NCBI GenBank assembly: GCA_947470025.1
Contig: CANIRU010000003.1
Location: forward strand, 1-61,446
Origin: Chloroflexota bacterium
Lineage (GTDB): Bacteria; Chloroflexota; Dehalococcoidia; UBA2979
Direction of reading: 5' to 3'
Length of the DNA: 61,446 bases
The notes below the pieces were generated by a model. That model was not told the origin of the DNA. It made no database searches and was given only the letters and a program-made list of their open reading frames with translations. The translations under genes were made by a program, and so were the position numbers. This document shows, in pieces, positions 1,922 through 57,704 of this stretch (the first letter of the stretch is position 1; every line of letters starts with the position of its first letter).

Positions 1922-1993
1922 TGACATGACTCGAAGCCCGCAGGTCCGCACGCGCGAGCCGGGATGCCCGGCTCGCGTGCGAACAGACACGTC

Positions 1994-3301
1994 CTAGATG
2001 ACGCCGCCCTCGCGCAGGCGATTCATCTCCTGTGAGTCGATGCCGAGGATCTCGCCGAACACGTACTCCTCGTGCTCCTTGAGGATCGGAGCGCGGCCGT
2101 GGTTGTCGGCGGGGGTGCGGGAGAGGCGCGGTGGGTACCGCTCCATCTCGAACTCACCGACCTCCGGGTGCGCGATCACCGGGTACATCTCGCGTGCGCG
2201 GAGCTGGGCGTCGTACTCCACGCGGTCCTCGGCGTTCTGGATCGGCACCGAGATCACCCCGGCGTCCTGGAGCAGCGTCATGATCTCGTAGCGACGTCGA
2301 GGCGCCGTCCACGTGGAGATGATGTCGTCGAGCACGTCCTGGTTCGCGCGCCGGTCGGCCATGGTGACGAAGCGCGGGTCCGTGAGGAGCTCCGGCTTGC
2401 CCATGACCTGGCACAGCGATTCCCACTGTTGCTGCGTCTCGCAGGCGATGAAGACGAACCAGTCCTGCCCCTGCCGGTCGATGCCCGCGCAGCGATAGGT
2501 GTTGTGCGGCGCGACCTCCGGCCAGATCGAGCGGTTGCCCGGGGGGAAGTCCGGGCGGCGCGTCGCACGGCCGTTGACCTGGTAGTCGAGGAAGAACGGG
2601 CCGAGCATCGCCATGGCGGCCTCGGTGACCGCGTAGTCGACGTAGACGCCCTCGCCAGTCCGCTTCATGCGGAGCAGGCCCATCATCATGCCGAGACCAC
2701 CACACCAGCCGCCGGTGACGTCCATGTAGGAGTAGCCCCAGCCGGCGGGGTTCTTGCCCGGCAGGCCCGAGGAGAACGTCAGGCCAGAGGACGCCTGCGC
2801 GGACGGCCCGTACGAGCGGTACGAACCCCACTCGCCCTTGTGCCCGTAGCCGGAGAGGCTCAGGTACACGAGCTTCGGGTTGATCTCCTTGAGACGATCC
2901 CAGCCGAGGCCCCACGAGTCGAGCACGCCGCCGCTGAAGTTCTCGCTCAGCCCGTCGCTGGTCGCGATGAGCTTCTCGAGGAGCTGCATGCCCTCGGGGT
3001 GCCGCGTGTTGAGATTGATCGCCAGCTTGCCGGCGTGCAGGTGGCTGAAGTTCGGCGTCGTGTAGTACGCCGGGGAGTCCGGCGCATCTCGGAAGGCGAT
3101 CTGGTTCTTCGCGGCATCGCCGTGCACCGGGCGGAACTCGAACCGGTGATCGTCCGGGCGGTGCGGCGGCTCGATGTGGATCACCTCGGCGCCGTAGGGG
3201 GTCAACATGCGCGTGGCCCAAGGCCCGACCGTCTTCCACGAGAAGTCGACGATGCGGACGCCGGTCAGGAAGCCCTGCGGCAGTTGCGGCTTGGAAGTCA
3301 T
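1994..3301 (-). CDS. Class III CoA-transferase (CaiB/BaiF family), catalytic-Asp-bearing subunit
   Basis: Motifs LTGVRIVDFS, GAEVIHIE, NPKLVYLSLSGYG and YMDVTGG. Its ATG overlaps the upstream TGA (ATGA). Confidence 0.9.
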   Translation of the reverse strand: MTSKPQLPQGFLTGVRIVDFSWKTVGPWATRMLTPYGAEVIHIEPPHRPDDHRFEFRPVHGDAAKNQIAFRDAPDSPAYYTTPNFSHLHAGKLAINLNTRHPEGMQLLEKLIATSDGLSENFSGGVLDSWGLGWDRLKEINPKLVYLSLSGYGHKGEWGSYRSYGPSAQASSGLTFSSGLPGKNPAGWGYSYMDVTGGWCGGLGMMMGLLRMKRTGEGVYVDYAVTEAAMAMLGPFFLDYQVNGRATRRPDFPPGNRSIWPEVAPHNTYRCAGIDRQGQDWFVFIACETQQQWESLCQVMGKPELLTDPRFVTMADRRANQDVLDDIISTWTAPRRRYEIMTLLQDAGVISVPIQNAEDRVEYDAQLRAREMYPVIAHPEVGEFEMERYPPRLSRTPADNHGRAPILKEHEEYVFGEILGIDSQEMNRLREGGVI

Positions 3302-6352: not shown

Positions 6353-7429
6353 ATGCTCGACCGCTTCAAGGTGCCGGAGGAAGACCGCGTCTACGTCCGC
6401 GAGTCCGAGGTGCGCGCCGCGACCGAGGCGATCTTCCTCGCGATCGGCCTCGTCGAGGCGGACGCGAAGCGCGCCGCGGACGTGCTGATCCAGAACGACC
6501 TCCGCGGCGTGGAGACGCACGGCGTCTCCAACATGCTTCGCTCGTACGTCGCGAGTTACCAATCGGGCGATCTGGAGCCGAAGCCGAAGATCGTCACAGA
6601 GCGCGAGACTTCCACGACCGCCGTCCTCGACGGTGGCAAGGGCCTCGGCCTGCACGTCGCGCCGACCGCGATGGAAATGGCGATCGAGAAGGCGCGCGTG
6701 CATGGCATGGGCGCGGTCAACGTGCACAACGTCGGGCACATGGGGGGCGCCGGCTACCACGCGATGATGGCGATCGAGCACGACATGATCGGCGTCGCGA
6801 TGTCCACGAGCGGGCGCGCGATCGTGCTGCCGACGTGGGGCGCAGAGCCTCGATTGGGCACGAACCCGATCGCGTGGGCGGTACCCGCGGGGGAGATGCC
6901 GTCGTTCGTCTTCGACATCGGCACGTCGCAGATCGCGGCGAACAAGATGCGCCTCGCCAAGCGCGTGGGTGCGAGGATCGCGCCGGGCTGGATCGCGCGC
7001 CCGGACGGCACGCCCGTGATGGAGGAGATCGACTTCCCGGACGAGTACTATCTGCTGCCGTTCGGCGGCACGCGCGAGCTGGGCTCGCACAAGGGCTACG
7101 GCCTCGGCGCGACGGTGAACATCCTGAGCAGCATCCTCACCGGCATCGGGCCGAGTCTCGCGCCCTCCAGCCCCGGGTTCCATCTGATGGCCTACCGCAT
7201 CGACGCGTTCATCGATGTCGCGAAGTTCAAGGCCGACATGGACGAGTTCCTCCGCGGCCTCGTCGCCACGCGCCCCGCGCCCGGCGAGGCGCGCGTCGTC
7301 TACGCCGGCCTGCTCGAGGAAGAAGAGCACGCGCGGCGCCTCGAGACTGGCATCCCGTACCACACCGAGGTGATCGAGTGGTTCGGCACGATCGGCAAGG
7401 AGCTCGGACTGACGTTCTCGTTCGTCTAG
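6353..7429 (+). CDS. Ldh_2-family (malate/L-lactate dehydrogenase-like) NAD(P)-dependent oxidoreductase
   Basis: DLRGVETHG, NVHNVGHMG, GTNPIAWAVP and LPFGG...HKGYGL motifs. Confidence 0.9.
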   Translation: MLDRFKVPEEDRVYVRESEVRAATEAIFLAIGLVEADAKRAADVLIQNDLRGVETHGVSNMLRSYVASYQSGDLEPKPKIVTERETSTTAVLDGGKGLGLHVAPTAMEMAIEKARVHGMGAVNVHNVGHMGGAGYHAMMAIEHDMIGVAMSTSGRAIVLPTWGAEPRLGTNPIAWAVPAGEMPSFVFDIGTSQIAANKMRLAKRVGARIAPGWIARPDGTPVMEEIDFPDEYYLLPFGGTRELGSHKGYGLGATVNILSSILTGIGPSLAPSSPGFHLMAYRIDAFIDVAKFKADMDEFLRGLVATRPAPGEARVVYAGLLEEEEHARRLETGIPYHTEVIEWFGTIGKELGLTFSFV

Positions 7430-7452
7430 CGGCGCGAACCGTCCTGACACGC

Positions 7453-7484
7453 AAACGGCCGGGGGCTCACGCCCCCGGCCGTTG
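7453..7484. terminator. Bidirectional intrinsic terminator
   Basis: aacggccggggg-ctcacg-cccccggccgtt between convergent genes. Confidence 0.75.
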
Positions 7485-7506
7485 TGTTGCGCGTGGGCGC
7501 GGTGCG

Positions 7507-8184
7507 CTAGGAGCGCGTCGCGCGGCGACCGAGGACGGTGACCGCACCGGCCGCGGCCACGAGGCCAACCACCACCATGATCGACGTCGAGGCGGTCGAG
7601 GACAGGCCGGCGCTGCCGGTCTTGCTCGGCGCCGGGGCCGCGGCGGTCGCTGCGGGGGTCGCCGCCGCCGGGGTGGCGGTCGTCGTGGCGCTCAACACCT
7701 GGCCGCGGATCTCGCCGCCGGGGTTCGCCGTCGTGTGCACGTTGGCGTAGATGTTGCCGCTCTTGAACGCCGCGATGAAGCCGGGGACATTGCCGGCCAG
7801 CGGGCCCTTGAGCACATCGGACAGCTTCGCCGTGCCCGAGGCGCCGACCGTGCCCTGCGGAGACGCCGGGATGAACAGGTCTACGACCACGCCGCCGTTC
7901 GCGCCCGGAGCGCCCTGGTGGAGGTGAGACATGGTCATGCCGGTGATCGTCGGGACGGTGAGCGTCCACGTGAGCGTGCCGGCGGCCTCGTCCAACGTGC
8001 CGACGAACGTGCCCGTGGCGGTCGAGGCGTTCGCCGGGACCTCGGTGCTGCCGGCGAGCGTGGCGCCCCAGATCGTCGGGGCGGCCTGAGCGGCGGCGAG
8101 CGACGGGACCAGCGCGATCGTGATCGCGGCGGCGATGCCGAGCGCGATGACCTTCGGTGTGATGCGTGACCTGAAGATGAGCAC
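7507..8184 (-). CDS. Secreted CHRD-domain protein with a C-terminal sortase-like sorting signal
   Basis: Signal peptide; CHRD motifs LAGSTEVP, SHLHQGAPGANG and YANVHTTANPGGEIRGQV; then PAPSKTG, a hydrophobic helix and the RRATRS tail. GTG 8184 follows AGGGAA. Confidence 0.85.
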   Translation of the reverse strand: MLIFRSRITPKVIALGIAAAITIALVPSLAAAQAAPTIWGATLAGSTEVPANASTATGTFVGTLDEAAGTLTWTLTVPTITGMTMSHLHQGAPGANGGVVVDLFIPASPQGTVGASGTAKLSDVLKGPLAGNVPGFIAAFKSGNIYANVHTTANPGGEIRGQVLSATTTATPAAATPAATAAAPAPSKTGSAGLSSTASTSIMVVVGLVAAAGAVTVLGRRATRS

Positions 8185-54472: not shown

Positions 54473-54639
54473 CGGTGATCTCCAAATCGGCGCGGCGTGT
54501 GCTTGTGGCGGGAGTGCGTGGGTGTCGAACCCACCCGGGACCGCGACGCGGCCCCGCAACGGTTTTGAAGACCGCGGACATCACCGGACACCATCCACTC
54601 CCGCCCGGATGATAGCGGGAGGCGGGACCCTGGGGTGCG

Positions 54640-56144: not shown

Positions 56145-56660
56145 GTGAGCATGGGTGGCCCCACCGACGAGGATCGCGCGAGCGTCTCGCCAGAGAACCT
56201 GGCGAAGATGGAGAAGTTCGTCGCCAACTTCGCGGAGAAGTCCGGCTCCTTCCTGCACCCCCAGCGCGAAATCACCGACTTCCTGGTCATCGGCCTCGCG
56301 AAGAACATCGAGGAAGTCGGCCGTCCGCTCTGCCCGTGCATGTTCTTCGAGGACAAGCAGGCAGAGGTCGAGAAGAAGTTCTGGATCTGTCCGTGCGAGG
56401 AGATGCAGCGGTGGAAGTACTGCCACTGACTGCTTTTCACCGATGCGGAAGGTCTTCCCATCACCGAATACCTGCCAGAGGACCACGAAGGCCGCGAGGC
56501 CTACGGAGATCGTCCTGACCCCGACCCCTCGAAGGGCCGTGCCCTGACGCGCCTCGAGGAGAAGCAGGGCCGCTCCGTAAACAAGGGCATCCGCGCCGAT
56601 GGCGCCGCGGGCTCCGGTAACGACGACCCTCCGCAGATCATCCCCCTCGGCGGCGGCTAG
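56145..56660 (+). CDS. ftrC: Ferredoxin-thioredoxin reductase catalytic subunit-like protein, predicted selenoprotein (Sec95 encoded by TGA 56427-56429), 171 aa
   Basis: Motifs LCPC, ICPC and YCH-TGA match the FTR CPC/CPC/CHC signature. The frame continues LLFTDAEGLPITEYLPEDHEGRE... to TAG at 56658-56660. GTG start follows AGGAG. Confidence 0.85.
56430..56462 (+). promoter_or_regulatory. Bacterial SECIS-like element
   Basis: Hairpin GAUG-(C)-GGAAG-GU-CUUCC-CAUC at 56442-56462, starting 12 nt after the UGA, with a 5' bulge and a GGUC apex. Confidence 0.75.
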
Positions 56661-56734: not shown

Positions 56735-57086
56735 GGGGCGGCCCATCCCCCTGCCCCCTTCCCTGTGCGGGAAGGGGGATGAATGGCGAGGACTCCGCCC
56801 TCGCGCTCCCACCGAAACGAGCATGCTTCGCGCCTCGGTTCCCCCGATCGCACAGCCTCACCCTGCCCTCTCCCCCTCGAAGGGGCGCGGTTTTGATGAG
56901 AGCGCCCAGCTCGCGATCGGAACTACCCCTCGGCAGCGACATCTCCATGCGGCGGTGCGAATCCCTCGCACCGACCCAACGCAGCCACATCGAGTTCCGC
57001 CGGGAGTGTGAGGGGCGCAGCTCCTCACACTTGGTTCTCTTCTTCTGACCCCTCCCGCGCCGGGAGGGGTAGGGGTGGGCCGCCCC
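56735..57086 (+). repeat. Composite inverted-REP element, copy B
   Basis: Left unit ggggcggcccatccccctgcccccttccc-tgtgc-gggaagggggatga, an internal cctcaccctgccctctcccc unit, and the 93-nt core at 56993-57085. Confidence 0.9.
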
Positions 57087-57223: not shown

Positions 57224-57556
57224 CTAGGCGGTCGCGAGCGCCGACTCGAGGTGCTTCGCCAGGTCGCTCTTCGGGCGGAAGCCCACGACCTGACCGACCT
57301 GCTGCCCACCCTTGAAGATGAGGAGCGTCGGGATCGAGCGGATGCCGTACTTGCCGGAGACCGCCGGGTTCTCGTCCGTGTTCAGCTTCACGAACTTCAC
57401 GCGGCCGTCGTAGTCGTTCGAGAGCTCCTCGACGACCGGGGCGACCATGCGGCACGGGCCGCACCACGGCGCCCAGAAGTCCACGAGGACCGGGGTGTCG
57501 CTGTTCAGGACGTCCGCTTCAAACGTCGCGTCCGAGGTGTCCGTAGGGTGAGCCAT
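57224..57556 (-). CDS. trxA: Thioredoxin
   Basis: [19 protein letters not shown] and IRSIPTL motifs; 110 aa. Confidence 0.97.
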
Positions 57557-57704
57557 GGTGGGTGGTCCTTCCTCTCCTGCGACATCGCCCGCCGCGACGC
57601 GCTTGCTGTGTAGTCGGGTCGCCGCCGGCCCCAGCCCATCCGAGGATGGCGGTTCGTCGACGGGATGCGGGTCGTCCAGCGCCGTGGAGCGTATCATCCG
57701 CTCG

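Follow-up and report, generated by a model that had tools for sequence, protein, structure and literature searches.

A candidate SECIS hairpin within the coding sequence of a predicted single-selenocysteine ferredoxin:thioredoxin reductase from uncultured Dehalococcoidia

Gene content around a single in-frame UGA

The window, by which we mean the whole 61,446-nt stretch of DNA analysed here, contains a gene for a homolog of the catalytic subunit of ferredoxin:thioredoxin reductase (FTR), with a tRNA-Sec gene and a thioredoxin gene nearby (Table 1). The source genome is a fragmented 2.17-Mb MAG that is 80% complete and has a GC content of 69%. ORF calling with translation table 11 ends the FTR gene at 94 aa; when TGA is read as U, the gene becomes a single frame of 171 codons with the motifs C63-P-C65, C82-P-C84 and C93-H94-U95. 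Only one in-frame TGA is present, the first redox Cys being an ordinary Cys in CPC, and the peptide around the predicted Sec is YCH-U-LLFTDAEGLPITEYLPEDHEGR. The 76 codons 3′ of the UGA form a frame that is open, conserved and FTR-homologous.

Table 1. Features at the FTR locus, in positions of the window.
Feature	Coordinates	Strand	Basis or remark
tRNA-Sec gene (selC), anticodon UCA	54506..54602	-	ARAGORN; Rfam RF01852, 71.9 bits against a gathering score of 47
FTR catalytic subunit homolog, predicted selenoprotein, 171 codons + TAG	56145..56660	+	Translation with TGA=U; Pfam; 1DJ7
In-frame UGA, predicted to be read as selenocysteine (U95)	56427..56429	+	TGA in 87/97 distinct orthologs, TGC in 10
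Spacer from UGA to hairpin base, 12 nt, CTGCTTTTCACC	56430..56441	+	Sequence read
Candidate SECIS hairpin	56442..56462	+	ViennaRNA folds, frozen synonymous sites, pair counts, covariation
5′ lower stem, GAUG	56442-56445	+	Pairs with 56459-56462
Bulged C	56446	+	
5′ upper stem, GGAA	56447-56450	+	Pairs with 56455-56458
GGUC tetraloop	56451-56454	+	GU at 56452-56453
3′ upper stem, UUCC	56455-56458	+	
3′ lower stem, CAUC	56459-56462	+	
Thioredoxin gene, WCGPC	57224..57697	-	Pfam PF00085, E 6.1e-34, ORF residues 54-151

The translated protein matches Pfam PF02943 (FeThRed_B) with 78.9 bits (E 3.5e-22; gathering cut-off 22) and aligns to Synechocystis FTR (PDB 1DJ7 chain A) with an E value of 9.4e-22 and a constant offset of 8 residues. 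In this alignment C63, C65, C82, C84, C93 and H94 correspond to Cys55, Cys57, Cys74, Cys76, Cys85 and His86, and U95 falls on Cys87, the last Cys of the CHC motif; all six Cys positions of the family are thereby accounted for, the last of them as U. The CPC-x16-CPC-x8-CH(C/U) spacing is identical in the cyanobacterial and plant enzymes (PDB 1DJ7, 2PUK and 7BZK; E about 1e-21 over residues 17-100). However, these have Cys at position 87 and work with a variable subunit in oxygenic phototrophs, whereas the gene described here comes from a non-phototrophic Dehalococcoidia lineage. In the established biochemistry of FTR, reportedly described by Dai and colleagues in 2007 (cited in PMC2398784), the redox-active disulfide is made by Cys57 and Cys87, and it is Cys87 that contacts the [4Fe-4S] cluster in the reaction intermediate. 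The UGA is thus aligned to the redox-active Cys of its homologs, the position at which ten orthologs have TGC.

The thioredoxin gene is convergent with the FTR gene, and the thioredoxin that it encodes is a likely substrate of the FTR enzyme. Its ORF as listed is probably overextended at the 5′ end relative to the real gene. About 90 nt past the FTR stop codon, the raw sequence also contains a strong G/C hairpin (56747-56780, CCCCCUUCCC-UGUGCG-GGAAGGGGG).

A hairpin downstream of the UGA codon

The original prediction placed a SECIS-like hairpin, GAUG(C)GGAAG-GU-CUUCC-CAUC, after the UGA. We find it at 56442-56462: on the + strand the TGA is followed by the spacer and then by GATG, C, GGAA, GGTC, TTCC and CATC, and ViennaRNA folds this 21-nt RNA, GAUGCGGAAGGUCUUCCCAUC, into the same structure, with a 4-bp lower stem, one bulged C, a 4-bp upper stem and a GGUC tetraloop. 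As expected of a bacterial SECIS element, the hairpin lies inside the coding region, beginning 12 nt past the in-frame UGA. The upper stem had been given as 4-5 bp; it has 4, because the fifth pair, G25-C28, would close a loop of 2 nt. The loop GU does lie at +23/+24 after the UGA as predicted, that is, 23/24 nt past the A of the UGA, or nt 26/27 counting from its U, the numbering used from here on.

The hairpin was also said to mimic closely the SECIS element of E. coli fdhF. The likeness holds for the architecture and for the offset, the GU of fdhF being 3 nt closer to the UGA, but not for the bulged U. The fdhF element (formate dehydrogenase H, UGA140, MG1655) runs UGA CACGGCCCAUC GG(U)UGCA GGUC UGCA CC, with the bulge at U17 and the GU at 23/24; G23/U24 and the bulged U17 are its contacts with SelB. 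Both hairpins lie inside a CDS just 3′ of UGA-C. In each, a GGUC tetraloop caps an upper stem of 4 bp, the only bulged nucleotide is on the 5′ side exactly 5 nt ahead of the loop, and a lower stem follows beneath. In the FTR hairpin, by contrast, the GU is at 26/27 and every element is 3 nt (one codon) farther from the UGA, C takes the place of the bulged U (with A or no bulge in orthologs), and the two elements are unrelated in stem sequence, host gene and phylum. The hairpin consequently falls outside a strict fdhF-type definition with a bulged U17, G23/U24 and an 11-nt spacer to a 17-nt minimal element.

Thermodynamics alone is poor support for the hairpin. Folded by itself, the 21-nt RNA has an energy of -6.6 kcal/mol (z = -2.05), and 8 of 200 shuffled sequences fold as well; in a 61-nt context the fold energy is unremarkable against shuffles (z = -0.19). 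For this reason we dropped fold stability as an argument for the element and rely on conservation and covariation. The form of the hairpin is nevertheless rare in the genome: over 4.34 Mb, both strands counted, only 4 GGUC tetraloops occur with 4+4 Watson-Crick pairs and at most 1 bulged nt, and TGA precedes only the one described here. No SECIS family of Rfam 15 matched, whether 5.5 kb was searched at E <= 1 or 101 nt at E <= 10, and the only hit was a chance one to a snoRNA (E = 2.6). Bacterial SECIS hairpins are short and variable, and we therefore regard the missing Rfam match as uninformative.

Conservation of the hairpin among orthologs

Orthologs were sought in 60 relatives and in GTDB species genomes, and the loci recovered come from uncultured Dehalococcoidia (Chloroflexota) MAGs. 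With duplicates removed there are 97-98 distinct sequences, the number varying with the length of the stretch compared. The codon at the U of the CHU motif is TGA in 87-88 distinct orthologs and TGC in 10, in independent Dehalococcoidia MAGs, and in all orthologs the base after the UGA is C. An origin of the TGA by nonsense mutation, as a lesion in a pseudogene or through faulty assembly, with the hairpin as a coincidence, would fit the table-11 call that stops at 94 aa and the fragmented state of the MAG. Such an origin is extremely improbable given that the same TGA recurs in 87 distinct sequences from independent assemblies, that the downstream frame remains open, conserved and homologous to FTR, and that a protein ending at residue 94 would be without the redox partner Cys87. 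Recoding, which the original prediction had preferred to a nonsense mutation, is supported by the TGA in 87 of 97 distinct orthologs, by its alignment with the catalytic Cys87 and by the presence of decoding machinery.

The hairpin sequence is nearly frozen wherever the codon is TGA. GGAAGGUCUUCC is unchanged in 86/87 TGA orthologs, with the rare codons GGT and CTT and zero synonymous variation; the 12 nt GGAAGGTCTTCC, within codons +6 to +10 (E/A-E-G-L-P), are identical in 86/87 as well. The GGUC loop with GU at nt 26/27, the apical feature expected of a SECIS element, is likewise invariant in 86 of these 87 sequences. Codons +6 to +9 of the Sec forms are GAG (73/73), GAA (86/86), GGT (86/87) and CTT (86/86). 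Their synonymous entropies, 0 for GAG, GAA and CTT and 0.09 bit for GGT, rank lowest among 26 conserved columns of 4-6-fold degeneracy and 36 of two-fold degeneracy. Elsewhere in these genes, Gly and Leu columns reach 1.1-1.9 bit, with GGC and CTC/CTG as the favoured codons.

The ten Cys forms encode the same E/D-G-L-P with GGC, GGG, GGA or GGT and with CTC, CTG, TTG or CTT, corresponding to 1.85 and 1.69 bit, and the hairpin core is absent from all 10 by both sequence and folding. Dehalococcoidia Cys-FTRs, paralogs and orthologs (e.g. L038, L041 and L043), are 61-67% identical to the protein described here and share with it their motifs and the E/D-G-L-P-I peptide that follows CHC, but they carry TGC rather than TGA, lack the GGAAGGUCUUCC hairpin, have Val rather than Cys at the fourth residue after this position and form a separate clade. 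By the original prediction, equal conservation of the hairpin in Cys-encoding homologs would have told against a SECIS element. It is not observed, with 86/87 TGA orthologs keeping the apex and 0/10 Cys forms having the hairpin. Selection at the RNA level, the mark of a SECIS element, is therefore seen in the UGA forms but not in the Cys forms, the latter being one clade.

A single tree split with a support of 0.885 parts all Cys forms from all Sec forms (a quick FastTree tree on about 97 aligned residues, so that counts of events on it are approximate). The comparison of Sec with Cys forms therefore amounts to one phylogenetic contrast, and we rejected its treatment as many independent contrasts. 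Most weight is consequently carried by the freeze within the Sec forms and by covariation in the stem.

Covariation in TGA-containing orthologs had been proposed as a check, and the lower stem provides it: 62 sequences pair GAUG with CAUC, 12 pair GACG with CGUC, and 0 combinations are mismatched. The switch between U-A and C-G took place in about 4 events on the protein tree, each forcing an Ile/Val change. Under the bulged model 92.6% of cells are paired, compared with a shuffle mean of 87.2 +/- 0.7 (0/500 shuffles as high) and with at most 62% in slid controls. The single bulge stressed in the original prediction is, on the other hand, not a conserved feature. The bulged base is C here and A in most orthologs, and it is absent in 10/87 to about a fifth of them. 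Ten sequences form a C20-G33 pair and hence a continuous upper stem of 6-7 bp (CCGGAAG/CUUCCGG or UCGGAAG/CUUCCGA). As a general model this continuous register was rejected, since only 56% of cells pair in it and it fits these 10 sequences only.

These patterns bear on the possibility that the hairpin is kept for reasons other than SelB, such as peptide or codon constraint, mRNA stability or pausing, the UGA being read by near-cognate insertion of Cys or Trp. The hairpin does code for a conserved peptide, (D)-E/A-E-G-L-P-I/V, and some codon differences could be phylogenetic with the Cys forms in a single clade; the missing Rfam match can be counted on the same side. But in the Cys forms the peptide is retained while its codons vary freely, other Gly and Leu positions of the same genes most often use codons different from GGT and CTT, and other synonymous sites of the same Sec forms vary widely. 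The pairing, moreover, covaries at the price of an amino-acid change. Further evidence against this alternative comes from the decoding machinery, considered below.

Two side observations concern individual residues and sequences. The sole TGA ortholog without GGAAGGUCUUCC (locus L039, genome G025) has a different hairpin, GAUGG-CGUGC-CCAUC, with GU still in the loop. In its flanking residues (A-C-E, V at +4, E-D) this ortholog is similar to the Cys forms, and it may represent either an intermediate state or a second way of building a SECIS element. The residue at +4 after Sec (56439-56441) is Cys in 82/87 Sec-FTR orthologs (U-L-L-F-C) and Val in 10/10 Cys forms, while the gene in the window and its 98%-identical relative have Thr. 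A Cys at +4 may supply an extra resolving thiol coupled to Sec use, or it may reflect an RNA-level constraint.

Decoding machinery and predicted selenocysteine insertion

The genome encodes the components needed to read UGA as Sec. The tRNA-Sec gene lies 1.8 kb upstream of the UGA, SelB is a 628-aa protein encoded on contig C69 that scores 314 bits, over the cut-off, and has the winged helices SelB-wing_2 and SelB-wing_3 (C-terminal winged-helix part at about residues 450-628), and selD scores 346 bits. Of selA only the C-terminal ~76 codons are present, where the 3.3-kb contig C148 begins (62-289). The rest of selA is missing from the assembly, though not necessarily from the organism, and three relatives of the same genus (G001-G003) have a full selA.

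The UGA form of FTR travels with this machinery. Among genomes with a TGA-FTR, 26/28 have a strong tRNA-Sec and 25/28 a full selA, whereas 5/7 genomes with only a Cys-FTR have neither, including G005 and G006 of the same genus and the single-contig G009. Selection on the RNA hairpin is thus seen only together with a UGA codon, in genomes equipped with Sec machinery. That TGA forms track tRNA-Sec and selA, and that the GGUC loop, its distance from the UGA and the winged helices of SelB fit SelB recruitment, also argues against near-cognate reading of the UGA with a hairpin kept for peptide, codon, stability or pausing reasons, and we consider that account improbable.

The Cys-form-only genomes without a convincing tRNA-Sec and selA are G005, G006, G009, G029 and G051. 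Loss of the Sec trait seems to have occurred inside the genus, although G005 and G006 are only 72% and 88% complete. Sec and Cys FTR paralogs are both present in G002 and G008.

Taken together, we put the probability that the hairpin at 56442-56462 is a bacterial SECIS element inside a selenoprotein CDS at roughly 93%, on the evidence of sequence comparison. A ribosome reaching the UGA at 56427-56429 would then meet SelB-GTP-Sec-tRNA(Sec) tethered to the GGUC loop with its exposed G26/U27, through the last winged helix of the C-terminal winged-helix domain of SelB. The complex would deliver Sec-tRNA(Sec) into the A site, where release factor 2 competes with it, and translation would run on for 76 more codons. 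The predicted product is a single-Sec FTR catalytic subunit with Sec in place of Cys87, the partner of Cys57, so that the redox centre of the full-length enzyme would be a Cys65-Sec95 selenenylsulfide; most likely this enzyme would reduce the thioredoxin encoded beside it.

How often the full-length protein is made is a separate matter. Bacteria that have been studied insert Sec incompletely, because release factor 2 competes for the codon. A UGA that acts mainly as a stop, giving a 94-aa protein with minor or conditional Sec insertion and with selenium supply setting the full-length amount, would be in keeping with this, and UGA-C, a weak termination context, can be counted on the same side. 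The 94-aa product would be without the Cys87 equivalent and the conserved C-terminal segment, and the 76 downstream codons are conserved, which makes a mainly terminating UGA very improbable. It is in any case compatible with the hairpin being a SECIS element and bears on efficiency only.

Selenoprotein forms of FTR are not new. A Sec-containing FTR was described from the GOS metagenome (Zhang & Gladyshev 2008; PMC2398784), reviews list Sec-FTR with a CxU motif (PMC9312934; PMC13188914), and Dehalococcoidia are already known as selenoprotein-rich (PMC13326102). The selenoprotein family has been known since 2008, and the hairpin is not a new kind of element. The GOS proteins, curated as NCBIfam NF041072 ("FtrB family double-selenoprotein"), and the gene described here both have Sec at the Cys87 equivalent (CxU) and a predicted bacterial SECIS after the UGA. 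They differ in that the former have two Sec (CPU...CPC...CIU) and the latter has one (CPC...CPC...CHU), together with a C-terminal extension of roughly 70 residues. Membership of NF041072 was rejected, as the protein scores 45.1 bits against a cut-off of 160, in the same range as its Cys relatives, and has one Sec only. The gene represents a different, predicted single-Sec CHU subfamily that stands apart from the curated double-Sec model.

The main value of these results is a correction of annotation, of modest specialist interest, and current understanding is not overturned. Standard gene callers stop the gene at 94 aa and so lose the active-site residue and the 76 codons downstream, and the same truncation error probably affects many related Dehalococcoidia MAG records. 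The locus adds a well-supported case in which an uncultured, non-phototrophic lineage would use selenium in its system for reducing thioredoxin, and the clean contrast between Sec and Cys forms gives a picture of SECIS selection within a coding sequence. Sec at the cluster-interacting position of FTR would be a natural probe of the Fe-S/disulfide mechanism.

We also looked for other TGA genes in the genome. A naive scan for TGA with any GGU-loop hairpin returned 206 hits, mostly noise in a 69% GC genome, and was replaced by a codon-position GC filter that left 19 candidates, 2 of which were kept as real on the basis of motifs. The FTR site itself failed this filter because its downstream GC3 is only 0.68. 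The first candidate selenoprotein combines AhpC/TSA and DsbD_N domains with a W-U-PFC motif (contig C125, - strand, ORF 1953-3119). Its TGA is conserved in 12/15 hits in relatives, the genome's own excluded, and the family has a conserved hairpin, GCAGCU-CGUGC-AGCUGC, with GU at nt 25/26, which the Cys homolog L145 lacks. The second has a glutaredoxin domain with G-U-SSC (contig C11, + strand, ORF 7058-7993; paralog on C36, 4607-5371), fused to a C-terminal domain of roughly 190 aa with no family assigned. Its TGA is found in all 6 hits in relatives (8/8 with the genome's own, all within the genus), and its conserved hairpin is (C)GAAAG-AGUUU-CUUUC(G) with GU at nt 27/28. We count these two thiol-oxidoreductase families, each with a hairpin of its own, in favour of the SECIS reading of the FTR element. 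With 26/27 in FTR and 25/26 and 27/28 in the other two, the loop GU of this lineage lies 25-28 nt from the U of the UGA.

A wider proposal, to which we give somewhat less than even odds, is that the single-Sec CHU FTRs are a subfamily that may lack an explicit earlier description, widespread in Dehalococcoidia and often located beside selC. In such enzymes selenium would be at the cluster-contacting Cys87 position and not at the nucleophilic Cys57, so that catalysis would involve a Cys57-Sec87 selenenylsulfide and contact between Se and Fe of the [4Fe-4S] cluster, and the lineage would use a loop GU 25-28 nt from the UGA, about one codon beyond that of E. coli.

The position of tRNA-Sec relative to FTR varies among the loci. 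The flanks of the closest relatives scanned (L055, L056 and L059) contain no tRNA-Sec, whereas 20/60 related loci scanned have it on the opposite strand, no more than 3 kb upstream of Sec-FTR. Often, in related loci L062-L096, only ~100-200 nt separate its end from the beginning of the FTR gene, as against 1.5 kb in the window, where a gene for a 424-aa envelope protein lies in between.
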